Shown in pieces: positions 4,594 to 55,317 of a stretch of 64,000 nucleotides of DNA (the stretch's first letter is position 1; every line of letters starts with the position of its first letter). This DNA comes from Minutocellus sp. GHC0000111. Lineage: Eukaryota. The stretch is taken from the NCBI GenBank assembly GCA_977018835.1, contig OZ361256.1:4092001-4156000 (forward strand), read 5' to 3'. The notes under the pieces are model-generated. The model was not told the DNA's origin, searched no databases, and worked only from the letters and a program-made list of their open reading frames with translations. Both the position numbers and the translations under genes were made by a program.

Positions 4594-7455
4594 TTAGCCC
4601 GGTCCTACTTTCTTGATACCTCCAAGTGTGTCGGCGTTACTTTGGCGATTGATGATGGAATTGACGAGTTGAAATATGGAAATCTTTGGTGCAGCCTTGG
4701 TATGGCTTGGCGATCCATAGTTGCTCTTACGATCGACGACAGCGAGACTGGTTTGTTTCTTCTCCTCAATGAGTATGTCAATCTGTTCGTCTACGTCAAA
4801 ACAGCGCATCCAAATGCTCGTGACAGGTTTCGTCTGACCAATGCGACGGACTCTGTCTTCTGCCTGCAAAGCATCGCCGGGCGTCCATGGTCGATCGAGC
4901 AATATAATTGTAGCCGCTGCAGTCAGAGTGAGACCGACCCCGCCAGCACCGAATGTACACACAAATACTGCCGAGAGCCCAGCCTGAAAGTCATCAACCA
5001 TTGGCTGACGCTTCTTTGGCGGAGTCTCACCCGTCAGAACATGCCCATTCCACCCCGATTCCCCGAGTCTTTTGTGCACTTCTTTTGCCACCGCAACAAA
5101 ATTTGTGAATATAACTACTGCTGGCTCCTTTTCCAAGACGGCTTGGGCAAGGCGAACCGTTCCACCGATTTTAGCCTCCGAAGCGATAAGTCGTACTCGA
5201 TTGAAGGCTCCCAATAGTCTGTCCCTTGAATCGTCTCCCTTCGTGTCGCTGTGCATTGATTGATATAGCTTTGCAAGGTCATTCATGGCATTGGTATGCT
5301 TTAATTCATCCCGGCTGCTCACTGGAATTTTCCTGAACTCACGGGTCTTGGGCGGTAAATTTTCAAGGCACTCTTCCTTCGTCATGAATAGCATGTGATT
5401 GGCAATGTGCGCATTGAGATGGTTCAGATTACTGGATCCGCTGGCGTCCCAAGTCATTCTCCCCCCAAAATTTTTCTGCATACCATTGCAAAAAAATGTC
5501 TCGAATAGCCTCTGATTGTCACCAAACGGATGTCGGACTGCGCGAAGCAGAGGGAAGATATTGCACGGTTTGCCATTCTTCATCGGTGTGCCCGTCAGAA
5601 GAAGTACTCCGACGCACCTCTTATCCTGCATCAAAGCCAGAGCATCCTTCGTTCGTCCAGATGCTATGTTTTGCATTTGATGGGCTTCATCGGCAATGAC
5701 AACAAAATGTTTGGCCTCCTCCGGCACCTTACGAGGACTGGGTATCTTTTGCCACGAGCAGACGTGCATGTCCATTTCGGGCGATGGACTTTCCTCCTTC
5801 CCATCGTCATCACAGTCCAACCCCACGATGGACGATGCCGTTCGAATCCATTCCTTGCTCAAACTTACGGGGCAGATGGCATAGATCTTGAGATCGGGGT
5901 ACGTATTTTTGAATGCCTTGCCCCAAACGCATCCGACCAAGGTCTTCCCCAGTCCCATGTCGAATGCCAAAATGAAGCGACGCATTTTTGAGTCCACGCA
6001 GCACGCCCAACTTTTGGTGCGGTAAGATTTTCCATCCATTCAGCAATTTCTTGGAAAGTTCCGCATGCTTAATCAGCTCGGCCCTTCGACCATCATCGAC
6101 TGGTGCCACCCGCTCGGGATCATAGGCTATCATCGGAGGCAGTGGCGGAAGCTCTTTTGCTCGGCCGCTGGCCATTGCACTGGAAGAAGAGGATGGTCTA
6201 CTAGTAGAAGTGCTTGCAGCAGGGGCGGCACCAGCGTTGGCATTGCCATTGGCACTACCAGGCCTTGTTGTAGAAGCTAATGGTGCTGATACTGATGATC
6301 CACCCGATACCCCCCTTTGTACTTGTGGCTGCTGCTGCGGATTTGACCACGCCGTCGGTCGACCAATGCCCGAAGCTAGCGAATAAGGATTATTCTGTGG
6401 CTTACTCGACTGGCGAGATTCTCCTCCCTTCAAATTCGATGCTGATGCTGGTGCCGTCTTTTCTGTAGACTTCGCAGCTGTAGCCGCCTTATTCACCGCA
6501 ACTGGATCACAATCTTTCCGGCCAATATTTCCTGGATTGTCTGCGTTGTTCGTGCCGGCAGTGCTTGTAGTCTTCGTCGTCCCGACTCCAGTAGCAACAC
6601 TCATATCAAAAGCCGACCAATCGATCCCCCCATCTCCATATTCATCACCGGCACTGAGCTTGCCGTTGGGCTGAGGCAATGCCGATGCAGCACTAGTAGC
6701 ATTGGCGGTAGCACAGGTACTAGTATCCCTGGGAGCTGCTGCAACAGCATTGGTCGATGGTTTGGCGTTTGCATAACGATTCGACGAAGCTGACACACTG
6801 GTCGCTGGTGCCCGTTGCATGACGTGCTGACCTGGCTGGCCCATTTGCGGCTCTGCATGTGACACTGCTCCTGGCTGCGGTTTTGGCTGCTGCGGCATCC
6901 GCTTCGCGTACGGGTTGTGCGGGAGCAGAGCCGCCGGAGCGGCGGCGGAAGTGGAAGCTGTGGTCAGCCCACCCATCCCACTGGCCGTCGTAGATGATGA
7001 TGAAGATGCCGTCGCTGTTGCGTGATAAGTATTGACTGCCTGGACTGGAGCTGCCGCAGGGTTGCGCCGGCATTCCGATCACCGGTGGCATTGCTACTGC
7101 CATTAACACCTACGTGAAGAGTCGAGGGCTGGCCGACCACCACAGCACCAGCTACAGCACCGCGATTTGCTTGAGGTTGAGACTGTTGTCCATGCGATTG
7201 GTGTTGCGGCTGTGCCGACGGTGGCTGCTGCTGCTGCTGCTGCTGAACCTCCGCCCTCGGCCTCTTCCTGGTGTTGGCATACGGGTTGGCAGGCAACGGC
7301 AACTGCCCACGCCGGTCGCCCTGCTGAAGTTGACGCTGCACATCGATAGAATTGATAACACCGCCACCACCAGCTTTAGCAGTAGCACTATCAGCACTGC
7401 CCCTCGCCGACGGCGCTGCACGCGGGTCGGCCGGTCCATCCATTCCAGTCTCCAT
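4594..7455 (-). CDS. SNF2-family helicase (SMARCAL1/ZRANB3-like) with long low-complexity N-terminus; split over three ORFs by frameshifts (~5985 and ~7100)
   Basis: LPHQ...ILAFDMGLGKT (motif I), IADEAH (II), LLTGTPMKN (III), AGGVGLTLTAA, DRPWTPGDALQAEDRVRRIGQ (VI). Removing one base of the T5 run at 5985-5989 joins GLK to MRRFIL. Confidence 0.88.
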
Positions 7456-7935
7456 TGCTCAAAGTACTGTATCCGCGGCTCCTTGCCGTTTTTTCATCAG
7501 GCTGGGCGGGATGTATGGCGATGGCGCGGCGGTTTGAGCCGGGTTGAAGGTTTTTCGTCAGACTTTCATCAGATCGAAACCACCGAGGAAACCACCTCTG
7601 CCATCGCCAGCAGTCTTGCCAATGCCGCGAGTCAAAAGTTACCGGTATCAGGTGCATGTAGGCTACATGGGATCCCTATGTGCCGTGGCAAGCAAAGGGG
7701 AGCAGTTTTGCTTCATTATGACCATGTAATATTGTTCTTTAGGGCTACATCTAATGTCGTACTCAAATATGCTAATGAAAATGTCTTGTCCTGCTATCTC
7801 GCGCGGAAACTTTGCGCGCGCTTTCTTTCAACCCAATCTCTGACCCGGGGTGACGCTCTGATGATATATAATATTTTATGAAATGTTTGGATGTTGGTTG
7901 GAAGAAGGGTCACTCCTTACCACGACCCCTTTGGC

Positions 7936-10036
7936 CTATCGTTGACTTCCACCGCTTCCACCACTTCGTCCAGTGCTGCCGCTGTCGTCGGCATCATCGT
8001 CGTCCCCCTTGGAGCCGCCCTTCCCTTTTCCTCCTTTGGATCCGCCGGAAGAGTCATCGTCATCGTCGTCGTCATCATCTCCAGAGCTTCCTTTTGATCC
8101 ACCCTTGCCCTATTGACCGAAGTAAAAATATGCATGTGGAGTAATACGAAGTTAGAAAAAGACATGATGACATATCGCCATGCATTGAACACATTTCAAG
8201 ATACAACACATACCTTTCCACCCTTGGAGCCACCAGATGAGTCATCATCATCGTCGTCGTCTCCAGAGCTGCCCTTGGAGCCCTTGGAGCCGCCCTTGCC
8301 CTTCGAGGAGCCACCGGATGAATCATCATCGTCATCATCGCCGGAGCTGCCCTTGGAGCCCTTAGAGCCACCCTTGCCCTTCGAGGAGCCACCGGATGAA
8401 TCATCATCGTCATCATCGTCGTCATCGCCAGAGCTGCCCTTGGAGCCGCCCTTGCCCTTCGAGGAGCCACTGGACGAGTCATCATCGTCGTCATCGCCAG
8501 AGCTGCCCTTGGAGCCCTTGGAGCCGCCCTTGCCCTTCGAGGAGCCACCGGACGAGTCATCATCGTCGTCATCGCCGGAGCTGCCCTTGGAGCCCTTGGA
8601 GCCGCCCTTGCCCTTCGAGGAGCCACCGGATGAATCATCATCGTCATCATCGTCGTCATCGCCAGAGCTGCCCTTGGAGCCCTTAGAGCCGCCCTTGCCC
8701 TTCGAGGAGCCACCGGACGAGTCATCGTCATCGTCATCATCGCCGGAGCTGCCCTTGGATCCGCCCTTGCCCTTCGAGGAGCCACCGGACGAGTCATCAT
8801 CGTCGTCATCGCCGGAGCTGCCCTTGGAGCCCTTAGAGCCGCCCTTGCCCTTCGAGGAGTCACCGGACGAGTCATCGTCATCGTCATCGCCGGAGCTGCC
8901 CTTGGAGCCCTTGGAGCCGCCCTTGCCCTTCGAGGAGCCACCGGACGAGTCATCATCGTCATCATCGTCGTCATCGCCAGAGCTGCCCTTGGAGCCCTTA
9001 GAGCCGCCCTTGCCCTTCGAGGAGCCACCGGACGAGTCATCGTCATCGTCATCATCGCCAGAGCTGCCCTTGGACCCGCCCTTGCCCTTACTATCAGATC
9101 CTCCAGAGCCAGAACCAGAACCGCCCTTGGAGTCATCGTCATCGTCGCCAGAGCTGCCCTTGGACCCGCCCTTGCCCTTACTATCAGATCCTCCAGAGCC
9201 AGAACCAGAACCGCCCTTGGAGTCATCGTCATCGTCGCCAGAGCTACCCTTTGAACTCTTCGATGCCTTGGCAGTCTTATCGGAGCCGGAGCCACTGCCG
9301 CTGGCGGTACCACTGTCGGATCCACTGCCCTTGGCACTCTTCGATGATTTGCTGGCCTTGGCAGTCTTATCGGAGCCGGAGCCACTGCCGCTGGCGGTAC
9401 CACTGTCGGATCCACTGCCCTTGGCACTCTTCGATGATTTGCTGGCCTTGGCAGTCTTATCGGAGCCAGAGCCACTGCCGCTGGCGGTACCACTGTCGGA
9501 TCCACCGCCCTTTGTCTTCTTTGATGATTTGGCACTCTTGTCAGAATCGGAGTCGGAGCCAGAGCCAGAGCCACTGTCGCTGGCAGTACCGGTGGAGGAT
9601 TTCTTGCTCTCAGATTCACCGCCACCGCCGCCGCCAGTACCAGACCTCATGGCAACACCAGCTCCGGTTCCTGATCCGACGACGGAACCAGAGTGATCGT
9701 CGGATGAATCATCGCTGTCCACGTACTTCAGAGTTCGAAGGAACTGTTGTGTGGTCATGATATAGAAAAATTGTACAGACATGAAGATATGAGAGATGAA
9801 AACGAGGGTTATCTACCGATTGTGGTGGCGACAATACGCCATTTCAATTGTGATCAGCATTGAGGAGGAGAACGAGCGGGCGCAAAGCTTACCTTGGCAA
9901 TGAGACCAGCTTTGTGATGTGACTCGGCGCCATTTCTCTTACGGATGTATGTTTGCTGCAATTTATTATTATTTTCAGCAGCGGTCCGGTCCAGGCTGGT
10001 TGCCGCCAGGACAACTAGGGCATAATGCAGCTTCAT
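7936..10036 (-). CDS. Secreted silaffin/cingulin-like Ser/Gly/Lys/Asp repeat protein; exons 10036-9893, 9743-8214, 8109-7936
   Basis: Signal peptide MKLHYALVVLAA; RXL site FLRTLK at the start of exon 2; many KxxK motifs (KSSK, KASK, KGSK) alternating with poly-Asp; both introns are GT..AG and preserve frame. Confidence 0.75.
8040..9590. repeat. Coding tandem repeats (three unit types) within the silaffin-like gene
   Basis: About a dozen units of SSGGSSKGKGGSKG(SKG)SSG-D(5-9); 2 units of DSKGGSGSGSGGSDSKGKGG; 3 units of GSDSGTASGSGSGSDKTAKASKSSK. Confidence 0.95.
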
Positions 10037-10829
10037 TGTGATGTTGATGTTTTGTTCTGTAGTGTACCAATGGATTACTGCGTTTCACAAGCACAAAAAG
10101 TCAGGAATAATATGAAGGACCTTGGGTAGCAAGTTGAGTTATCTCGAAAACTTGTACTGCCAAAGGGGAGAAGTGATATGTCTATTCATGGGATATCGAT
10201 GAGAATAAAGTATGGCGAAAAAGAGAATTGTGAGTTGACAGTTTGAGCGGGGCAAATGTGTTCTTTCGAAAAGAACAAAGTAGCGAATGAATGCCAATGG
10301 ATGGACTTTGTCATTGATTGAGAGCTGGTAGAAGAAGCAGTAGAAGCCTGTGATATGGCAATGGAATCGACACCAGCCCATCTATCTTGTCGTGGTCCGT
10401 CAGCCAATCGCTCATTCATGGTACCGGAAATACGCTGGCTGTGGAATCCAATTGCTGTTCTTTATGAATACCAACCCGATCGATCCACCAGCTGATGCCA
10501 TCACAACTGGCGCCACCTGCCAACTGACCAGCCATACAATTAAAGTCAGACGGTTGCACCACTGAATACCCATCCAAAGGCTACCGCAGATACCAGTATC
10601 ATGATGTCTCATGGGTTGTTCATGCATTCCTCACCTCCAAAGCAAAGAATTATGCTGATGGGGCCAGGTGTACATGTAGATCTAGTCTTTGTGTGATGAT
10701 GCTACATGGCTGTAATTCATCGGCATCGGCACCGGAACAATGAAAGCGCTGCAAGAGATACTAGAGTAGTGAAACCATTCCTGTGCTATTGAGGTATCAG
10801 TTCCTAAAGGTTCAGAATCTGCGCAAGAG

Positions 10830-13112
10830 TTAAACCAACCCAGCGGCCTTCAATTTCTTGTGTTCCGACACAGCTCTGGGAAAGAACCGAGCATTACCTG
10901 GCGGAGTTCCACTAAAAACATTTCCTGCAATGATCCCTTCCATCAAACCTCTAATCACTTCGTTGTCATTTGTCTCCGAACGGAACCTTTCAAAAGGCTG
11001 TGCACAATGAGTATCACCCTCGGAGAACCATTGAAGCAACAAACAGGCAATGTCAACATATAGTGAATGTTCGGGATGCTCCAGCATGTAAATAGCAAAT
11101 TGCACCGCCGCTTGCTCAGCAAGAAGAAGGACGTTACTTCGTAGCTTTTTGGAACGTCTATTGAAACCTTTTGGGCAAAATGTCGGAGGATAGCTTCTCA
11201 TAAATGTATCAAAGTCATCCATTCCCGTGCACTCGAATGCGTTCGAGCTGATTTCTCCTGACATCAGCAAGGCGTCTATCTCATCTTCCCATAAGTTTTG
11301 CAGTGGCGAGACACAATAGCTCTTATCTCTTTTCCTGCTGCCCCTCCATGGTGAAAGGAACCGAGCAGTCTTTTCTTTACCGAGACCATGAGCGAAGCGG
11401 AAGAGATGAAGGGCGAGCATAGACTGGCAAATGAAGTTGTCCTCATGTACGTCAGCGGCCTCGAATCGTCGTTTAGTAGCATTGAATTCAACTTTCTTCA
11501 AAAGCAACGGATCGAACGAAGCCTTTGACACCATGAAGATTCCGTCGCGATAAGATCCAAGGAAACAGTCAATGCTCTTTGCAGTTGTTTCACGAGATAT
11601 TTTATCTCCTTTCTCGAGAAGTGCGTTACTGATGACCGCGCGTCTGGCGACCTCTTGAGATGAGAGAAAGGCACATTTCGTTTCAGATTCAGAGGGACGA
11701 GCTACGCCTTCGTTGTTCACGTCCCCGATTTCTTCATTTTGACCAGGGCCCTGTTGGCTTGAATCCTCCGCTGGCTCATCACGGCGACAAAATCTCTTGT
11801 ACTCTGAGACATATTGAGATATGTCGTTGTCATGGATATCCTCTGTATCGTCATCTTCATACTCCACTCGATAATAAGGACGTTCGTTGGTCGGTAATCT
11901 GGTAATCTCACCCTCGAAGAAGCCATACCCGGGGAAATTCTTGCGAATCTTGTCACCAAGGCCATGTGCCCTATGATCACCTTCGTCTGGATCGGGGTAA
12001 GACTTTCGCTTCCCACTCCTACTGACAACATCTGCCCCGCCTTCTCCTTCAACGTCAACTCCCTCTTTGCCTGCCTCTGTATTATCGGAAGAACCGGACC
12101 CCGCAGCTGATGACGACGACGATGGAACGTCATTCCTCGCTGCCTCTTTTCTCTCCAAATAGCGCATGGCGAATTTGTTGACAACGAACTGTTCGTTCTC
12201 AGAATGGAACGGCGCATTACAACACGGGCAAGGTATCTTCTTTTTGTTGCCGCTCAACTCCGTCACCTTGGCGGTCCGATGCAACTCGGTGCATTGCATG
12301 CACAAGGTGTTGCCGCAGCAATTGGGCGTGAGGACTGGTCGTCGGTCGGTTGGACTTCCTGCAGATGAGCCAAGATTGTAGTGCTCGTTGCAGATGAAGC
12401 AAATATCGAGGCTGTCATCGCCCACGCCCCTTTGTAGTTCATTCCTTACCAGAGTGCGCGAGTGAATGGTTTGGTTTGATTCCTCCATGCTCCCTTCGCT
12501 TCCTCTTTCCAGAGCCGTCACAAGTGCAAAATTGGCATCGGCCGCCGGTTCGGCAGTAACAGCAGCAGCCGACAAAGACGAATTCGCCACAGCAGAAGAA
12601 GATTCGCGTTGGTCGTCTGACGCAAGAGCGGCAAAAAAGCTGCTGATGCCGGCGGTGCCGCCACCACCTATCGCCGGCAGCTCGCCGGACTCGCCTGGTC
12701 TCTCCGCCGCAGCGCATTCCTCCTCGTGCTGGCATGCCTCCTCGAACGATTCGAATGATGCCTCCTTGCAAACATCGCAAAGCCACTTCTTTTGGGTCGT
12801 GGTGCTTATTTTGGTGATATCGCTCATAACTTTGTTTGGAGACGAGGCGCACTTGGGAATGTTTATTCGAGGTGCTGGGAGCGGAGACTGTGGAGGAGTG
12901 AATATTCCGTGGTGGTGGCGCAACAACTTTGCGTCAAGTATTTCCTTTTCTGTGGAGAAGCAGTCTTGGCAAAGCTTTCGGGCGTCATTCAGGGAAGTCT
13001 TCGCTACACTTCTCTTTGGATTGCCGTGTCTTGAGAGGCAGCCATTTACACAGGGAGCTCTTGGCATTGAGGCCAGGGAACAGGGCCGAGCAAATATCAT
13101 TTCGATTGACAT
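10830..13112 (-). CDS. RING-finger plus Tudor-like domain protein with an N-terminal C2HC-type zinc motif
   Basis: CFIC...PNCCGNTLCMQC...CPCC (RING-like); GDKIRKNFPGYGFFEGEI...YYRVEYEDDDTEDI (Tudor-like); WLCDVCKEASFESFEEACQHEEEC. Confidence 0.7.
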   Translation of the reverse strand: MSIEMIFARPCSLASMPRAPCVNGCLSRHGNPKRSVAKTSLNDARKLCQDCFSTEKEILDAKLLRHHHGIFTPPQSPLPAPRINIPKCASSPNKVMSDITKISTTTQKKWLCDVCKEASFESFEEACQHEEECAAAERPGESGELPAIGGGGTAGISSFFAALASDDQRESSSAVANSSLSAAAVTAEPAADANFALVTALERGSEGSMEESNQTIHSRTLVRNELQRGVGDDSLDICFICNEHYNLGSSAGSPTDRRPVLTPNCCGNTLCMQCTELHRTAKVTELSGNKKKIPCPCCNAPFHSENEQFVVNKFAMRYLERKEAARNDVPSSSSSAAGSGSSDNTEAGKEGVDVEGEGGADVVSRSGKRKSYPDPDEGDHRAHGLGDKIRKNFPGYGFFEGEITRLPTNERPYYRVEYEDDDTEDIHDNDISQYVSEYKRFCRRDEPAEDSSQQGPGQNEEIGDVNNEGVARPSESETKCAFLSSQEVARRAVISNALLEKGDKISRETTAKSIDCFLGSYRDGIFMVSKASFDPLLLKKVEFNATKRRFEAADVHEDNFICQSMLALHLFRFAHGLGKEKTARFLSPWRGSRKRDKSYCVSPLQNLWEDEIDALLMSGEISSNAFECTGMDDFDTFMRSYPPTFCPKGFNRRSKKLRSNVLLLAEQAAVQFAIYMLEHPEHSLYVDIACLLLQWFSEGDTHCAQPFERFRSETNDNEVIRGLMEGIIAGNVFSGTPPGNARFFPRAVSEHKKLKAAGLV

Positions 13113-45701: not shown

Positions 45702-45997
45702 GATGGGTATGACAGATGTGATAACGCCCGTTGTATCTTCAAGTCTCACTGAAGCGAAGCGAACGAACCCAGCCAGATGCAGAATGAGACCGCCCGAAAA
45801 AGGGATAGGGGTGCAACTTGTGTCGAAATGAATCAATCGAAGTTAGGGAAGACCGAGCAAAAGGCAAGACGAAATGTGTGCAATGTAAAGAGCATTAAAT
45901 CGGCGAGATACTGAAAGTCAAGCCATCTCGACGATGCATGGGTCGTTCATGCTGCCATGGCTCTCGGCGGCTAAGCGAGCTCTCTGCCTGGGGCTGG

Positions 45998-48609
45998 CAC
46001 AGCCCCATCTCGTCTTGTTTCGCCGGTCGGATGAAGCGTTTTTCGGCAGAAGACGAACACGTCACGAAGAAACCCACCAAAACCCAATCTCGTTCGTCAC
46101 CCATTCTTTGACCGTCCAACACCATGGTGGTCCGTCGGCGTTGCGCCGGCGTATAACTATATTTTCGTACCAAATACGCATTCATTATCATGTTTGGATA
46201 TAGTTGAAGCTTACTGTATCCTCAGATTGGCCTCCGCTGCGTATCAACGCCACGAACCATCGGCCTGCTTTTCCTCCATCTGCCGGCCGTTCGTTTCTCT
46301 GGGGTGGTGGCACCATTGCTCCGTCTTTGTGCTCGTCGTGCTCCCGTTGTGATGCCCCAGACCCTCTGGTACTTTCCCACGTTGTTGTTGATGATAAACT
46401 GCCGGGATTGCGCCGCACCCCCCGTATGACTGACTCTCGCTGATCCCGACCGATCGCATCCCCACTCGACCTCCCGGAATTCCGACAACAATTTTGCGCC
46501 CGAGGAGAGACAGATAGTGTTGGGATAAGTTTATGCAACAATCAACCCGACAAAGGGACTTTTTGGTCTGGGAGATAAATGGGTGAGTTAAGAAGGACGT
46601 GATGTGTTTGTTTGGGTGTACTATTTACTTTTTTGCTCAATCGCGATACTGTTTGTAAAAGTTGGATTATGCAATTCATTTGTTGTTGTGCAGCAGCAGT
46701 GTAATTTCATTTTCTAATTTTATACATGCCCTGCTCCCATCTCTACATCCTCATCTCCATCGGTGGCCATCATGATCATTTGTTGGCGCTTGTCATCAGT
46801 TTCTGCTTTAACAGCTTCGGTCCTTGTCCTTCCTTTTCCTTGTTCTTGCCACCCGAGAGTTTCGCTCCCGCCTCTCCTCGACCTTTGGATTGGATGCCCT
46901 CTCCTCAGCCTTGAACTGCGCCGTCTGTTGGGCCTCATGTCCCTTGACGCCCTGAGTCCGACGATCTTCCTTAACGCCCTCTTGGTGGGCTCGCTCTACA
47001 AACGATTCGTCGAGCCAATAGATGCCGCCCCATCCATTCTTCACTAGCCAAATGTGTTGGTCCAAGATGTGATCTTCGAGTAAGTGCCACTTGGGCGTCA
47101 TGCTAACACCGATTGCCCGTGCTTGCTTGAGGGCACTTGCAATCAATGCTTCAAGCTCTCTCACAGCCTTCTTTGCCTCATCATCCCATTTCATGTACCA
47201 TTTCAGAAACCTGGAACACATTGCGTCAAGAGTGTGGAGCAAATTAGAGCAAGCTTTGCAGAGCTCTTTGATGTCGTCATCCGTCATGCCATCTTCCTCG
47301 CGATTGTGCTCTAGGAGAGTTCCTTTGGTGGAGGTGTTGTGGTGGATGAACTCTATTGTCCTTGGTTTCTTCTTGTTGTTGCCGCCATCAGAAATGACAA
47401 TAGATAAAAAGCTCTCCAGCATTCTGCCAGCACTGCCCTTGTTTTACCTGAGTCGGCCGCCTCAATGCCGGCCTTTTTCAGGAAATGGAAGTGAGGGGCA
47501 TCGTCATCCTCGGCATCATCGACAGCTCCCATCTCTGGCTCGCCATCACCGTGCTTCTGACGATTCTTCTCTCAAAGTACTGCTGCATGCATGCTTCATG
47601 TGTAGCGTCCTCTCTTGCAATATCAGCTTCGTCCTCATAACAGGGCACATAGTCCTCGTCTTCGTCGTCATCGTCCTCACTGATCTCGCCGACCTCCGTC
47701 GTGGTCAGGGTGCCCACCGTCCCAACATCGTCGTCATTGTCCCACCCATCGTCCTGGCCACTACACCCACCAGGGAACTTCTGGGCCTCGAGCAACATCT
47801 GCCTGTTGATTTCGTAGTCCATCGCCGCATATCCCACCGATATATGTGGTGCGACCGACTTGAGGAATGCATTACATGCCTTCGTCAAATTGAGCCGCGG
47901 CGGCGGCATTTCGAGGCGAAATTGTTGCTCGACCGTGACCATGTCGAAAGCCATCCATCCATCATCATGGAGAGCGTCGGCTGCACGAGGATTGATAGAG
48001 CCGAGGCGAACAAATATGCTCTTTTTGTATGGGGTTCGCTGAACGTTGTCGGCAAGGCAGTGTCTTGATACCATTTCATCCCATCCATTCTGGTTGTCTG
48101 TCCTCACAAAAAAACACATCGCAGTCTTCGTGTTTCTTCTTCTTCAAACCCAAGATGCCCGCAGTGTGCATGACGGCGCCGTACATGATGGGACTGCATC
48201 CCAACACATTCATCAAGGAGTCGTTGTTGTTGCCGATGAAATTGTAGTAATGAAGTTCCTTTCTTCGAAGACGGACGAGTAGTTCAGCCAGGGCGTCCTG
48301 CACCGCAATTCTTTCTGCGGTGTTGACCGCGGGATTGCGGCCGTTATTTTTTTTGCTCATGGAGAATTGTGGATCGAGACCAACGGGAATATCACCAGGA
48401 TGTCGGGAGTACCTGGTTGGTCTCGTGCCGTAATTCTCCCACACCAGCGCGAGATATCGCCTTCGTTCTGCACGTAGCGGCGGCAATTTGAATTTTTGCC
48501 GCCATGGTGGCTCGCGTTGGGCGCGCCGGTCGGTTGCTTCGCGCGCCGGCCGGCCACCGAAAGTGCGACCAAAAGTATGCGAGTCATCCGGCTGGCAGAT
48601 GGTGCTGTG
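45998..48609 (-). mobile_element. Internally deleted Transib/RAG1/Chapaev-type DNA transposon, copy A
   Basis: Termini CACAGCCCCATCT (45998) and AGATGGTGCTGTG (48609); near-identical inverted copy at 52708-55317 with sharp boundaries exactly at the CACAG ends. Confidence 0.88.
46720..48360 (-). pseudogene. Transposase remnant of copy A (N-terminus joined to C-terminus; central catalytic region missing)
   Basis: MTPKWHLLEDH (H-x4-H) and LDESFVERAHQ match the zinc-binding and catalytic-Glu region of Transib/RAG1/Chapaev transposases; several frameshifts. Confidence 0.75.
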
Positions 48610-48814
48610 GCACCAGAGCGAGCTGCTGCAACCAAGCAAGCAATACTACGTAGCTAGAGCTAGTAGTGCCAAATGGTGCAGAGTTCTCCTCCTCGGGTAT
48701 TTGAGCTGAAGACCCCATATTCAGACAATCTACTCTGCACATCTTGTTATATATATATATTGCAACTGCATGTGAAGCGGTTTCCCAAAATTTGGGCCTG
48801 TTGAAAAGTTATGC

Positions 48815-48916
48815 ATTCCAACGTGGTCCCCCACCGTAGTACTAACTGAGCCCGAAGGTGCTTAACTTCGCAGAGCGAACGGGATGCGGTGCTGCCACCT
48901 TGGTATGGTCGTTCCT
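48815..48916 (-). rRNA. 5S rRNA gene, 3'-truncated (likely pseudogene or variant)
   Basis: Minus strand reads AGGAACGACCATACC...CACCGCATCCCGTTCGCTCTGCGAAGTTAAGC...GTTAGTACTACGGTGGGGGACCACGTTGGAAT; the expected final ~17 nt are replaced by GCATAACTTTT. Confidence 0.88.
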
Positions 48917-48997
48917 GTCTGACCGGATGAAAATAAGGTATAATAACTAAAAAAATTTGAGCGGTCAAGCAAGGCGGAAAACACTGGGCAACTCCAC

Positions 48998-50152
48998 ATG
49001 CTCCTTTCCACCCTCGCTACTAGCTAGTACCAACCACGCCTGGCCGTTCTATCTCTGATACCTCGGACATGTTCATGCTTGAGCGCATCGGCGTTTGTCC
49101 GAGCCAGTACATGTTACGCTCGGCGAGCAGCATTTTCGTCGTCATCATCTGCACCCGCCCATAATGCCGCCGACCAGTCATCGTCCTCGGCACTTCCACG
49201 CTCCTCCGGCACGACGGCCCTCGCATTTGATACAGAAACCACAGGCCGGGTGGACTTCAATTTTCCACCGTCGCATCCATTTCAGCCCGATTTGGTCCAG
49301 TTGGGGATGCTGCTGGTCGACACCCAAACATGTCAAACCCGATCGCAAGTATCCATGCTGGTCCAAAGCCGTCCTGGCGTGACGATTGAACCAGGTGCAC
49401 AGGAGACGCATGGCATTTCGTCGGAAGATTGTCGTCGATGCGGCGTTGATCCAGATGTTGCCATTCGCATGTTTTTGGGGCTGTATGAACGAGCTGATAT
49501 TGTGGTGGCACATAATTTATCCTTCGACGCGGCTGTTATGGAAGCCGCACTCGGACGAACCAGAGCCTTGACCAAGGGACGGAATGAAAATTACTTTGAC
49601 ACCATGATATCGATTGGTCGTCCTGGAGATAACATGCAGCGAGTTTGTACAATGAAGGCCAGCACTGATTTGTTGAAGCTACCATCAAAATTTGGGTCGG
49701 GCTACAAATGGCCGAGCTTGGCCGAGGCGTATCACTTTGTTCAGGGCGAAGAGCTGGAGGGTGGTCACGATGCACTCGTGGACGCCAAGGCATGTATGGA
49801 TGTGTTTCGGTATCTCGTGGAGAATGAAACTATAGAGCTTGGGCAGTCAAAGAGAGAAAGCGATACCAGCGATTCCAAGGAGTCTCGGCAACTTGAAGCC
49901 AAGTTGTCTGATCATTCCAGTGATTCCGCAGATGAAGAAGCTGGAACACCGTCTCAAGTCAATCCATCACCTGAAGGCGTATTGGTTCAGAGGACCTCCC
50001 GTGGCTTTGTTGTAAGTGGCATTACGTATTGGATACGAGCTGCGTTGAAGGAGCACGGTGGACGATGGGACTACGTGCGGAAGCAGTGGAGATTCTCGGG
50101 GATGACGGCCCTTCCAGCAATTGAAGAGCTGACGGGATTGTCTCTCGGGTAG
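48998..50152 (+). CDS. DEDDh 3'-5' exonuclease (DnaQ-like), probable plastid presequence; in-frame TAG at 49025-49027
   Basis: FDTETTG (ExoI), VAHNLSFD (ExoII), HDALVD (ExoIII), CTMK, YKWPSLAE; ASAFV motif; small C-terminal TY.IR..LK..GGRWD...W domain. Confidence 0.88.
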
Positions 50153-50721
50153 ATCTAGGAAACGGAGACTCGACTCCTCTTTCATTATTAGATCTACATG
50201 TAGTCCAGATCTACTAGAGCAAGAAGGTTGAAAGCTTAGCAGAGTGGCGGATATTTTCTAATAGGCACAAGGAGTTATTGGCGCAAAGACCTGTCAGTAC
50301 AGAGCATTCATGTGGCGTACATGTACACAAAAGCTCTTGTCGATCGATGGTGGTGACTTTTCTTACGGACTGTACAATCTACTACCGTAGCTAGATCTAC
50401 CGGTAGCTAGGACCCGTGTTGGGCGCACGCTATGAGGCGTATCTTGTGAAATATTAGGAATTTGAAAGTCGCAGTTTTGATGACGGAAGCGAAGAAGAAG
50501 ATCGCTATTGTGTGCAAAATACCCTGATCAGGGTAGCTTCAGAGCTCCATTTTTCCCAGGAACTCACCCGCCCGTTTTCTGTCCGGGTCCTACTACGACG
50601 TACGTAGCTAGTCTCCGAGGCTCGTACGTAGGCCTAGCTAGTAGCGAGCGAGCTACGTACGTATCGCGCGCGAATGCGATCGCAAACACGTCATCGCGAA
50701 GCAAGCAACCATCGAACCATG

Positions 50722-50768
50722 AACGATGAGCTGGCGCAACGTCGCAACGATGAGCTTGCGCAACGGCG
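50722..50768 (+). repeat. Two-copy 24-bp tandem repeat in a CpG-rich intergenic tract
   Basis: AACGATGAGCTGGCGCAACGTCGC followed by AACGATGAGCTTGCGCAACGGCG. Confidence 0.85.
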
Positions 50769-50867
50769 ATCGTCGCGTCGCGTCCGACGTCCTACGACGC
50801 GCACATGGCACGGTAGTCGACTTGCGTACAAAGCATACAACCCGAAAGGCAAGGTCAACAAATAACA

Positions 50868-51716
50868 ATGCGCCCAATGCGAGGAGCGACGGCATTGGTG
50901 CTGCTTGCGCCGCTGCGCTGTGGATCTGCCTTTGTGGTGCCCCAGCACACCCAAGCAGCCACCCGTCGGCGCCCAACATCACATGCTATGAGGAGTAATT
51001 GCCGACAGCGGCAGCTCGCCCAACTTTCTGCCACTGTATCGACAGATGAAGACTGTGGATGTGGCGGTGCCATCGTTTCTGGTGCGCCCTCCGAGGCCGC
51101 GCGGGCGTTGGATCCCAGAGTGGCCATCCAGAGTACTTTGTTTACTCTCAATGGGGTGGAAACCAACATGGATAGTTTGCTGGGAGAAACAGGACCGTCA
51201 CTGGTCGTCTTCCTTCGAAGTCTCGGCTGACCCTTCTGCCAGGAGCAGATACTGCAATACAATAAACGCAGAGATGAACTCCTGGCGGCTGGTGTGAAGC
51301 TTGTAATCGTTTCTATCGGACTCCCCGAAAAGGGCAAGGCTTTGTGTGAGCATTTGGGTGTGGAAGATGGCGAAAGCTTTGTTGTTGTAGATCCAACCAA
51401 TTCCTTGTACAATAATCTTGATTTGAATAAGAGCCTGGCAAGGACCTTCTTCAATCCAGCGACTCCACTCGCATTCAAGAATAGATTATTCCGCGATGGC
51501 AAGATGTTCTCAGATGAGTTAAGTGAAGTTTTGTCCAAGTGGAAAGATGCTTTCTACATACCGCCAAAGCAGGACCAGGCATTAAATCAAAGAGGGGCAT
51601 TTATTTTCAATGGCGATCGAACGGTATATGCGCATTATGACGAAGCCACAGCTGCGCACGCTCTGCCAAATGAAATGGTTGACAAGGCATTGGCAACTGC
51701 AAGGCAATACATGTAG
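50868..51716 (+). CDS. AhpC/TSA-like (SelU/PRXL2-type) thioredoxin-fold selenoprotein; TGA 51228-51230 read as Sec; probable plastid targeting
   Basis: ORFs 50868-51230 and 51294-51716 are in the same frame; readthrough gives LVVFLRSLG-U-PFCQEQ (UxxC) ... KLVIVSIG ... VVDPTNSLYNNL ... NQRGAFIF; signal peptide ending GSAFVVP. Confidence 0.88.
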
Positions 51717-51775
51717 CGATGAATGGATAAATATGTGCACATGGAATGTCCTGCTTGAATGTTTTTTCTGAACGA

Positions 51776-51842
51776 CCTGATGAATGACGTTGCAATGCAA
51801 TGCACCAAGTATTTATAATTGCGTCGCAGCTGATAAATCAGG
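51776..51842 (+). promoter_or_regulatory. Candidate eukaryotic SECIS element in the 3' UTR
   Basis: CCTGAT/ATCAGG helix I; ATGA core (51784) opposite TGA (51831); helix II GTTGCAATGC/GCGTCGCAGC (9 of 10 paired, counting G-U); AA 11 nt after ATGA. Confidence 0.72.
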
Positions 51843-51980
51843 ACGCCAGAGAAAATCAGAAATAAGTGAAGTGTGTACAGCTGCGTAGCCACCGATAGCG
51901 GTATGGTTTCGATAGGAATTCCTATGATAGCATTATGTTACATTTTTATGAGTGTGTGACTACTGCGTACATGTAGCTAG

Positions 51981-52570
51981 CTAGACGACAATGATACAAA
52001 TAATAATGACAATATAAACACTCTGGATCGCAAGCACCACTTTTATTCGTTCCTCCCGGTTCATTTCTTTCTTCATTTGTTCACAACAAGCGCCACCAAG
52101 GATCGGCCATTTGAAGATGTTGCCAGATCTTCTCGCACCATTCGTCTTTGTGTCGGCTTCAGCAATGGGCGGTGGTGCAATTTCAATTGTTTCTTTTGGT
52201 ACCTTGTCATTGGCATACATGTAGTCGACAAAGGGGGACACGTACGCAGGACAGTAGAAGTGTTGGACGAACGAACGCAGGCGGCGGGAACAAAACTTGC
52301 TATCGAAAATTCATCCAAAGGAAACCTTTCCTTCAACGCAGGAAGTAGCTCGCGGCTGTTGAGTTGCACCACCACGCTACAAACCGGAGGGATGGCTATG
52401 TTCACGGAAACCAATCTATCAGTAGTGATACATCTGGTGGGCTCAGGAAGAAGGAGGTGCTGAATGCCTACACCGGTGTATCCTTGATTCGATTGCTCGC
52501 AAAATCCATCGCGGAATCTTGGCCATCTATCCCTCCCGACTTGCAATACTACGTAGCTACTAGAGCACAT
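51981..52570 (-). CDS. Possible hypothetical gene fragment with a C-terminal hydrophobic tail
   Basis: Two overlapping ORFs, the last ending VVLAIQSVYIVIIICIIVV*; no recognisable domain or clear start. Confidence 0.25.
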
Positions 52571-52707
52571 ACATGTACGTGTACGCCCTACTCTAGCTAG
52601 TAGCTACGTAGCTACATAGGTACTTCCTCGATGGGATTCATGACCTGTACCCACTAAAGCATGCCCCAGGCACTAATGCTGAACAAACGCACGACGCGAC
52701 GCCCCAG

Positions 52708-55317
52708 CACAGCACCATCTGCCAGCCGGATGACTCGCATACTTTTGGTCGCACTTTCGGTGGCCGGCCGGCGCGCGAAGCAACCGACCGGCGTGCCCAA
52801 CGCGAGCCACCATGGCGGCAAAAATTCAAATTGCCGCCGCTACGTGCAGAACGAAGGCGATATCTCGCGCTGGTGTGGGAGAATTACGGCACGAGACCAA
52901 CCAGGTACTCCCGACATCCTGGTGATATTCCCGTTGGTCTCGATCCACAATTCTCCATGAGCAAAAAAAATAACGGCCGCAATCCCGCGGTCAACACCGC
53001 AGAAAGAGTTGCGGTGCAGGACGCCCTGGCTGAACTACTCGTCCGTCTTCGCAGAAAGGAACTTCATTACTACAATTTCATCGGCAACAACAACGACTCC
53101 TTGATGAATGTGTTGGGATGCAGTCCCATCATGTACGGCGCCGTCATGTGCACTGCGGGCATCTTGGGTTTGAAGAAGAAGAAACACGAAGACACTGCGA
53201 TGTGTTTTTTGTGAGGACAGACAACCAGAATGGATGGGATGAAATGGTATCAAGAAACTGCCTTGCCGACGACGTTCAGCGAACCCCATACAAAAAGAGC
53301 ATATTTGTTCGCCTCGGCTCTATCAATCCTCGTGCAGCCGACGCTCTCCATGATGATGGATGGATGGCTTTCGACATGGTCACGGTCGAGCAACAATTTC
53401 GCCTCGAAATGCCGCCGCCGCGGCTCAATTTGACGAAGGCATGTAATGCATTCCTCAAGTCGGTCGCACCACATATATCGGTGGGATATGCGGCGATGGA
53501 CTACGAAATCAACAGGCAGATGTTGCTCGAGGCCCAGAAGTTCCCTGGTGGGTGTAATGGCCAGGCAGGACGATGGGTGGGACAATGACGACGATGTTGG
53601 GACGGTGGGCACCCTGACCACGACGGAGGCCGGCGAGATCAGTGAGGACGATGACGACGAAGACGAGGACTATGTGCCCTGTTATGAGGACGAAGCTGAT
53701 ATTGCAAGAGAGGACGCTACACATGAAGCACACATGCAGCAGTACTTTGAGAAGAATCGTCAGAAGCACGGTGATGGCGAGCCAGAGATGGGAGCTGTCG
53801 ATGATGCCGAGGATGACGATGCCCCTCACTTCCATTTCCTGAAAAAGGCCGGCATTGAGGCGGCCGACTCAGGTAAAACAAGGGCAGTGCTGGCAGAATG
53901 CTGGAGAGCATTTTATCTATTAATATTTCTGATGGCAACAACAAGAAGAAACCAAGGACAATAGAGTTCATCCACCACAACACCTCCACCAAAGGAACTC
54001 TCCTAGAGCACAATCGCGAGGAAGATGGCATGACGGATGACGACATCAAAGAGCTCTGCAAAGCTTGCTCTAATTTGCTCCACACTCTTGACGCAATATA
54101 TTCCAGGTTTCTGAAATGGTGCTACATGAAATGGGATGATGAGGCAAAGAAGGCTGTGAGAGAGCTTGAAGCATTGATTGCAAGTGCCCTCAAGCAAGCA
54201 CGGGCAATCGGCATTAGCATAACGCCCAAGTGGCACTTACTCGAAGATCACATCTTGGACCAACACATTTGGCTAGTGAAGAATGGATGGGGCGGCATCT
54301 GTTGGCTCGACGAATCGTTTGTAGAGCGAGCCCACCAAGAGGGCGTTAAGGAAGATCGTCGGACTCAGGGCGTCAAGGGATATGAGGCCCAACAGACGGC
54401 GCAGTTCAAGGCTGAGGAGAGGGCATCCAATCCAAAGGTCGAGGAGAGGCGGGAGCGAAACTCTCGGGTGGCAAGAACAAGGAAAAGGACAAGGACCGAA
54501 GCTGTTAAATTAGAAACTGATGACAAGCGCCAACAAATGATCATGATGGCCACCGATGGAGATGAGGATGTAGAGATGGGAGCAGGGCATGTATAAAATT
54601 AGAAAATGAAATTACACTACTACTACACAACAACAAATGAATTGCATGATCCAACTTTTACAAACAGTGTCGCGATTGAGCAAAAGAGTAAATAGTACAC
54701 CCAAACAAACACATCACGTCCTTCTTAACTCACCCATTTATCTCCCAGACCAAAAAGTCCCTTTGTCGGGTTGATTGTTGCATAAACTTATCCCAACACT
54801 ATCTGTCTCTCCTCGGGCGCAAAATTATTGTCGGAATTCCGGGAGGTCGAGTGGGATGCGATCGGTCGGGATCAGCGAGAGTCGGTCATACGGGGGGTGC
54901 GGCGCAATCCCGGCAGTTTATCATCAACAACAACGTGGGAAAGTACCAGAGGGTCTGGGGCATCACAACGGGAGCACGACGAGCACAAAGACGGAGCAAT
55001 GGTGCCACCACCCCAGAGAATCGAACGGCCGACAGATGGAGGAAAAGTAGGCCGATGGTTCGTGGCGTTGATACGCAGCGGAGGCCAATCTGAGGATACA
55101 GTAAGCTTCAACTATATCCAAACATGATAATGAATGCGTATTTGGTACGAAAATATAGTTATACGCCGGCGCAACGCCGACGGACCACCATGGTGTTGGA
55201 CGGTCAAAGAATGGGTGACGAACGAGATTGGGTTTTGGTGGGTTTCTTCGTGACGTGTTCGTCTTCTGCCGAAAAACGCTTCATCCGACCGGCGAAACAA
55301 GACGAGATGGGGCTGTG
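52708..55317 (+). mobile_element. Internally deleted Transib/RAG1/Chapaev-type DNA transposon, copy B (inverted relative to copy A)
   Basis: Begins CACAGCACCATCT, ends AGATGGGGCTGTG; colinear with the reverse complement of 45998-48609 apart from scattered substitutions and indels. Confidence 0.88.
52957..54596 (+). pseudogene. Transposase remnant of copy B
   Basis: MSKKNNGRNP... N-terminus, acidic tract, then ITPKWHLLEDH...GGICWLDESFVERAHQEG; frameshifted, with the same internal deletion as copy A. Confidence 0.75.

Follow-up and report, generated by a model that had tools for sequence, protein, structure and literature searches.

Inverted transposon copies with unequally spaced ends suggest a likely Chapaev-related branch of the RAG1/Transib group in a probable diatom

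The 64,000-nucleotide stretch of contig OZ361256.1 analysed here (positions 4,092,001 to 4,156,000; hereafter the window, with positions counted from its first letter) carries two copies of one 2.6-kb transposable element in mutually inverted orientation. The ends of these copies resemble V(D)J recombination signal sequences (RSSs), which raises the question of which transposon family the element belongs to, and of whether the unequal spacing of its two ends is a property of that family or of these two copies. An initial annotation, made from the sequence alone, had proposed a Transib/RAG1-like transposon with 12/23 ends. Our data suggest that the element is probably a single-gene cut-and-paste transposon of a likely diatom, belonging to a likely Chapaev-related branch of the RAG1/Transib group, with an inner box that lies about one helical turn deeper at one end than at the other. 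The copies, which are identical at 2566 of 2621 aligned columns (35 substitutions and 8 indels), and their ends are as follows.

45998..48609, minus strand: copy A, internally deleted element, 2612 bp
52708..55317, plus strand: copy B, internally deleted element, 2610 bp
45998..46034, minus strand: 3' (long) end of copy A, made up of a terminal box of 13 bp, an insert of 11 bp and an inner box of 13 bp
48584..48609, minus strand: 5' (short) end of copy A, inner box directly after the terminal box
52708..52733, plus strand: 5' (short) end of copy B, CGGATGA from nucleotide 20 counted from the tip
55281..55317, plus strand: 3' (long) end of copy B, CGGATGA from nucleotide 31 counted from the tip

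Read inward, the 5' ends (tips at 48609 and 52708) are CACAGCA-CCATCTGCCAGC-CGGATGA and the 3' ends (tips at 45998 and 55317) are CACAGCC-23 nt-CGGATGA, the same in copies A and B, so that the end sequences and coordinates first recorded for this locus all check in both copies. The four element ends are the sole occurrences in the window of CACAG[CT][AC]CCATC and likewise of GCC[AG]G[CT]CGGATGA. The first 14 bases of the 5' and 3' ends share 12, and the inner 13-bp boxes match at 11 of 13 positions at an offset of +11, which was equalled by 20 of 2000 shuffles; with a 10-bp comparison the same ends match at 8 of 10 positions (p 0.31), which is not significant alone. Counted from the tip, CGGATGA begins at nucleotides 20 and 31, the start positions of the nonamer in V(D)J signals. 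The ends are equally well described as 13 bp + 0/11 + 13 bp, and cutting them into 7 + 12/23 + 7 is a choice, because the "12-nt spacer" consists of bases common to the other end. Copies A and B belong to one family and therefore provide no independent test of spacer variation.

Both copies hold remnants of a transposase, in which the two peptides singled out by the initial annotation, TPKWHLLEDH and DESFVERAHQ, are present.

46720..48360, minus strand: transposase remnant of copy A, frameshifted and internally deleted, deletion junction near 47312-47317
52957..54596, plus strand: transposase remnant of copy B, frameshifted, P0040 residues 329-900 missing at ~54000
54222..54251, plus strand: TPKWHLLEDH, H(4)H zinc ligands, corresponding to P0040 H978 and H983
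54309..54338, plus strand: DESFVERAHQ, likely catalytic Glu, corresponding to P0040 E1004 (alternatively E1008)

A search with the 239-aa remnant returned five proteins, the clusters of which contain a 1,097-aa open frame (P0040) that is 83-97% identical to the window remnants except in one frameshifted stretch. The internal deletion suspected from the window was real, as P0040 residues 329-900 are absent from both copies, and with them both catalytic Asp residues, the C(2)C pair and the helices resembling the nonamer-binding domain (NBD). The same deletion junction occurs in 34 of 37 informative family proteins, the other three being undeleted, and contigs of one read set (run X1) pile up on the element (~4,700-11,300, compared with 10-44 for inner bins of unique sequence; these counts are not copy number). 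Since the junction is shared and contigs pile up on the element, one deleted subfamily is amplified, which would imply mobilisation in trans. Copies A and B themselves are non-autonomous deletion derivatives and dead repeats, and the intact form of the window family would measure ~4.3 kb. The element is also present in RNA runs, in which contigs are no measure of transcription. A sister family (P0004, P0005) is 62-73% identical to the window family, and P0040 has 623 relatives at E <= 0.001; among 10 clusters of P0040 relatives the named members, in two clusters, are Thalassiosira exigua and T. oceanica. The host is probably a diatom, because both named clusters are Thalassiosira. Directly before the transposase start codon ends an imperfect hairpin (52878-52956 and 48361-48439; -19.1 kcal/mol as DNA, z -3.2, 2 of 200 shuffles), which may possibly have a regulatory role.

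The intact protein retains the motif set of the CMCT clade (EnSpm, Mirage, Chapaev, Transib and RAG1). In a 102-row alignment, counting rows with a residue at the position and assigning residue roles by motif, D516 (in DHG) is kept in 68 of 70 rows, D615 in 79 of 80, C632 in 78 of 78, C635 in 78 of 80, H978 in 80 of 85, H983 in 85 of 86 and E1004 in 85 of 87, which places the whole set at 94-100% of rows; L703-H704 (the LH motif) and E1008 are further conserved. The motifs read from the window do not point to Transib in particular, because the CMCT groups, in passages of PMC12730594, all have C(2)C and H(3-4)H. Kinship with RAG1 and Transib is nevertheless borne out by the predicted structure. 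The P0040 model (mean pLDDT, the predicted local distance difference test, 76) aligns along the core of RAG1 (Foldseek E 7e-13; Z 24.5, root-mean-square deviation (rmsd) 5.3, 472 aligned) and with HzTransib (6pqx; Z 20.9, rmsd 4.0, 434 aligned) and BbRAGL (Z 20.2), the P element scoring far lower (Z 10.8); identity in the structural alignments with RAG1, HzTransib and BbRAGL is 9-12%. Three of 50 structural alignment rows extend to model residues 331-351, opposite RAG1 395-408 in the nonamer-binding region (residues 387-480 in a passage of PMC1131882), and the predicted fold is RAG1-like, including NBD-like helices at P0040 residues ~331-400. In the Atlas ranking for P0040 the top places go to cnidarian clusters (0.96), followed by a cluster in which 12% of the members carry DUF1280 (0.95) and by RAG1 (0.94).

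Two further regions of P0040 are notable. Residues 1-175 form an N-terminal alpha/beta domain shared within the family (pLDDT 77 when modelled separately), which gave no clear structural match (best Z 3.4), no Foldseek match at E < 0.001 and no Atlas match; winged-helix proteins are frequent among its top structural rows, and these weak matches are evidence for neither a new fold nor a function. Between the LH motif and YHGG, residues 733-850 form an insertion that is modelled as a long coiled coil of two helices.

A scan of metagenome contigs gave 596 pattern matches, which resolved to 70 related loci. At 14 distinct loci the transposase is enclosed by a CAC...GTG end pair; 54 of the 70 gave none, many of them being cut short, and two were set aside (L032, a duplicate of L028, and L003, a doubtful pair). 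The CAC start was mostly a search criterion, and one search also admitted other starts. A 3-bp target duplication flanks seven of the 14 (L002, L009, L028, L029, L043, L050 and L068; a 3-mer duplication matches by chance in 1.7% of cases) and a 4-bp duplication one (L005); the remaining six end pairs have no target duplication, and no 5-bp duplication was found among the 14. CAC tips in the window and the 14 pairs, with 3-4-bp duplications in eight, agree with the termini and 2-5-bp duplications of the CMCT clade at large, and with the CAC...GTG termini and 3-4-bp duplications that passages of PMC4079192 give for Chapaev. This duplication length therefore fits Chapaev and not Transib or RAGL (5 bp), although one preprint reports 3-bp exceptions within Transib. 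Among the relatives, DUF1280 is the sole transposase Pfam family seen (matched at E <= 0.1 by 7 of 55, with 1.5e-6 as the best value and one above the curated cut-off), and part of PMC3985635 describes it as a Chapaev transposase; RAG1 is absent among the 25 of 42 Pfam families listed for the relatives. The Chapaev motifs are likewise present (C632/C635, L703-H704, H978/H983). No RAG2-like gene was found in the both-ended elements, which are 3.5-4.6 kb long and filled by one frame of ~1,020-1,140 codons or its pieces with no space left for RAG2, so that the absence of RAG2 remarked on in the window holds beyond it, and the complete proteins examined have no CxxC within their final 90 residues, where RAGL proteins have, in passages of PMC7204232, a Cx2Cx3GHx4C tail. 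The Transib label of the initial annotation accordingly gives way, on duplication length and DUF1280, to a likely place in a Chapaev-related branch of the CMCT clade, outside Transib, RAGL and canonical Chapaev. The window family itself offers only a crosswise candidate for a 4-bp duplication.

45994..45997, no strand: CTGG flanking copy A at its 3' end, matching CCAG at 52704-52707 as its reverse complement
52704..52707, no strand: CCAG flanking copy B at its 5' end, the second half of this candidate crosswise 4-bp duplication

The offset between the inner boxes extends well beyond the window. The related elements fall into five lineages that are 21-30% identical to one another (a FastTree tree of the window family's relatives only, unrooted, has long branches). 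Pooled over 15 pairs, window excluded, the inner-box offset peaks at +10 (z 7.9, next 2.1; 0 of 400 shuffles); this pool kept two doubtful pairs, L003 and the first L012 pair (probably wrong), both of which were left out of the per-lineage test. There, each lineage was represented by a single element, and every one of the 40 choices gave a peak at +10/+11, equalled by 0-3 of 500 shuffles. The offset, mostly 10 and sometimes 11, is found in four of the five lineages of relatives tested together and in the window family, and element by element, within -20 to +20, +10 or +11 is best in nine of the 13 used. In the CACATTCGTTT subfamily the inner box, a TTCTCGT-like sequence behind an invariant 11-mer (the search key), follows after 9 nt in 10 distinct 5' ends and after 19 nt in seven distinct 3' ends, and the spacer sequences differ. 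The idea of bipartite ends offset by about one helical turn is thus upheld by the relatives, with L002 and L012 as exceptions. The more exact parts of the proposal fared differently. Each lineage has its own inner box (CGGATGA, TCCTACC, GAATCCG, TTCTCGT and others), none resembling the A-rich nonamer, and CGGATGA is therefore not conserved; an exact 12/23 is not kept, as the offsets are mostly 10 and the count varies with the limits chosen for the boxes; and of the suggested check for fixed spacing with a varying spacer around CGGATGA, the spacing part succeeded in one subfamily (9/19 nt) and the CGGATGA part failed.

At L009 the two ends (L009:13-62 and L009:3474-3523) share the 11-mer CTCAGTACAAA at offset -26, besides the +11 box, with a perfect 10-mer at that offset, which suggests a putative third binding site. 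The candidate 3' end of L003 was rejected, its contig appearing to stop inside the true end. Viral contigs gave no match to the end pattern; 35 stretches in them matched the protein pattern, none confirmed as a relative. An end-pattern match with a 14-nt gap in a Verrucomicrobiota genome (L071:2178-2217) lies inside a bacterial reading frame, has no element similarity and was put down to chance.

Several observations count against the classification and the offset proposed here. P0040 itself matches no Pfam transposase family, PDB sequence searches with P0003 and with the 102-row profile returned no transposase, and the Chapaev assignment, likely as it is, draws on the length of the target duplications and on DUF1280 matches that only a minority of the relatives show. 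No Chapa zinc finger is present (CxxC in two of 36 N-terminal regions and none in P0040), and the N-terminal alignment has no conserved Cys or His. Neither copy A nor copy B is flanked by a target-site duplication of its own, which bears on the family's duplication length, and the relatives' end pairs were picked by hand from candidate lists by terminal identity and element length. As to the offset, most single elements are not significant alone; in L028 and L035 the +10/+11 offset comes close and an equal or better one lies elsewhere, and in L008 it is weak. L002, which is in the same clade as P0040 (FastTree support 100) and is the closest both-ended relative, looks symmetric, as its boxes match best at offset -1 (9/10 match, p 0.03; 10/13 match, 352 of 2000 shuffles), its 3' end being 10 bp shorter than that of the window family at a shared GCGTTTTT tract. 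In L012:96-4569 the 20/31 spacing appears reversed, with the long end 5' (-11; 39 of 2000 shuffles); the ends of L012 are uncertain, because there is no target duplication.

These exceptions matter most for how the offset is to be understood. It could be real and yet reflect helical phasing or tolerated one-turn insertions, with no short/long pair needed and no rule of the 12/23 type, and we regard this as a serious possibility, only somewhat short of an even chance. The near-symmetric L002, with its 3' end 10 bp shorter, and the apparently reversed L012 would be expected in that case; moreover, RAG1 alone, without RAG2, reportedly shows no 12/23 preference (a passage of PMC8355894), and invertebrate RAGL has been proposed to be fairly insensitive to asymmetry (a passage of PMC7204232). 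Against it, the same polarity, with the long end 3', and the same size recur in five lineages of 21-30% identity with different boxes, one subfamily keeps a fixed spacer length although the spacers have diverged in sequence, and ProtoRAG favours its asymmetric pair in the assays described in part of PMC8289069. As this explanation concerns function, it can be held together with the Chapaev-related classification. A simpler account, in which the 11-bp difference was a one-off insertion into a 26-bp inverted repeat that spread with the deleted subfamily and 12/23 is numerology, would suit the window well: both copies come from one deleted subfamily, the short "spacer" is made of bases common to the other end, and the closest both-ended relative lacks such an offset. 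It is largely refuted at the family level by the relatives, which with the window excluded show +10/+11 far beyond shuffles, and we consider it very improbable.

The classification has a competitor of its own, namely that the element is a divergent Transib of the subgroup I type, with asymmetric ends and a shifted target-duplication length, and so an ordinary extension of a published pattern. RAG1 and HzTransib are the best structural matches, all subgroup I Transibs have asymmetric ends (PMC9435367), 3-bp and TA duplications are reported for elements of the Transib clade in part of a 2026 preprint, and the Chapa domain is absent here, as in Transib; nor can the fold results separate Chapaev from Transib, because no Chapaev-labelled chain is among them. 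Set against this are the 9-12% identity in structural alignment, compared with an average of 26% between RAG1L and Transib (PMC9435367), DUF1280 as the only transposase family seen, and 5-bp duplications in none of 14 pairs, and on balance a divergent Transib appears unlikely. We therefore retain the Chapaev-related branch in comparing the element with known systems.

With Chapaev and Chapaev3, as far as passages of PMC4079192, PMC4411706 and PMC3985635 describe them, the relatives share CAC...GTG termini, 3-4-bp duplications, the motifs C(2)C, LH and H(4)H and a single gene, and 7 of 55 match DUF1280. They differ in having no N-terminal Chapa zinc finger or RING and in their probable diatom hosts; instead of the finger or RING they carry an unassigned N-terminal domain of 150 residues, followed by an acidic linker and, further on, a coiled-coil insertion of 120 residues. 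Transibs with RSS-like ends resemble them in the RAG1-like fold, the single transposase gene, the CAC heptamer-like tip and the short 5' and long 3' end, but have 5-bp duplications and ~700 aa, compared with 3-4 bp and 1,020-1,340 aa here, and an A-rich nonamer-like box (in the families of 2005) in place of lineage-specific boxes; HzTransib is 9-11% identical in structural alignment. The V(D)J/RAG system differs in that the present family has no RAG2, no A-rich nonamer and, in the short end of the window family, no variable spacer.

Asymmetric ends of the RAG type are not new, even in a stramenopile, because those of Transib, AanRAGL and PflRAGL-A are already in print. Ends like RSS12/RSS23 are given in part of PMC1131882 for five Transib families (Transib5, Transib2_AG and TransibN1-3_AG). 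AanRAGL of the pelagophyte Aureococcus anophagefferens, a stramenopile alga as the probable diatom host here would be, has a 13-bp terminal element and an inner element at 4/13 spacing, a 9-bp offset, with an inner box unlike the RSS nonamer (PMC9435367), and the ends of PflRAGL-A show, in a passage of PMC10629977, a 10-bp asymmetry like that found here. The initial annotation had left open whether the family was already described: the 12/23-like Transib pattern (PMC1131882) and asymmetric RAG-like ends in a stramenopile (PMC9435367) are published, and what appears to be new is the extension of asymmetric ends to a single-gene, Chapaev-related diatom lineage. We found no paper on such a lineage or on asymmetric Chapaev ends in a search that lay outside Repbase and subscription journals, which may hold the family, and the text of one supplement to PMC9435367, the other data files being outside the search, names no diatom or Chapaev. 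The origin of the 12/23 asymmetry and the need for RAG2 are debated in passages of PMC8355894 and PMC10629977 and in PMC9435367, and a large single-gene lineage outside Transib and RAGL with a 10-11-bp offset and changing boxes would widen the age and range of the design. Five relatives (L005, L009, L022, L035 and L068) have open reading frames and both ends, and, as L002 supplies a near-symmetric control from P0040's own clade, the short/long question is directly testable.

By analogy with RAG, ProtoRAG and HzTransib, transposition may proceed as follows. An intact copy elsewhere in the genome would mobilise the deleted copies in trans, and a transposase dimer would cleave the DNA at the CAC tips, probably through a nick and a hairpin like RAG and Transib. 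The terminal 11-14 bp may be read by the catalytic core and the inner box by an accessory DNA-binding region, either the NBD-like helices or the N-terminal domain; the one-turn offset would keep the inner box on the same helical face, allowing a short and a long end to fit one asymmetric synapse. A bolder proposal, which we regard as tentative and rather doubtful, is that the one-turn long/short design predates the split of Chapaev from Transib/RAG1 and that the diatom lineage enforces 12/23 with a single transposase, no RAG2 and interchangeable inner boxes.

The 4.1 kb between the copies (48610-52707) is flanked by inverted copies with outward-facing 3' ends, and recombination between them could invert the segment. 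An inversion is unproven and a candidate only, hinted at by the one crosswise 4-bp match of CTGG and CCAG, which has a chance of ~2%; the other flank pair is mismatched. The segment holds the following genes.

48800-48916, minus strand: 5S rRNA gene
49028-50152: RNase T-type exonuclease gene
~50817-51716: AhpC/TSA-like gene

The substitutions between copies A and B are unevenly placed, 18 of 29 transitions falling at TA steps (to TG or CA), where 21% would be expected (p 2e-6). Among 51 family proteins (of P0001-P0210), the rate of change per cell is 0.30 for Tyr but ~0.006 for Asp, Glu, Gly and Lys, and many sites hold Tyr, Cys and His together, the outgroup having Tyr at 11 of 16 such sites. 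The TA to TG/CA pattern is the reverse of fungal repeat-induced point mutation (RIP). The few read-set differences listed gave 6 of 14 in unique DNA and 5 of 10 in the element, no difference and no sign of repeat-specificity. Part of a 2026 preprint on Bigelowiella natans contains the terms TpA and hypermutation. The element is TA-poor, and intergenic stretches at 48640-48670, 50590-50665, 51960-51990 and 52540-52620 are rich in overlapping TACGTA/TAGCTA/CTAG palindromes.

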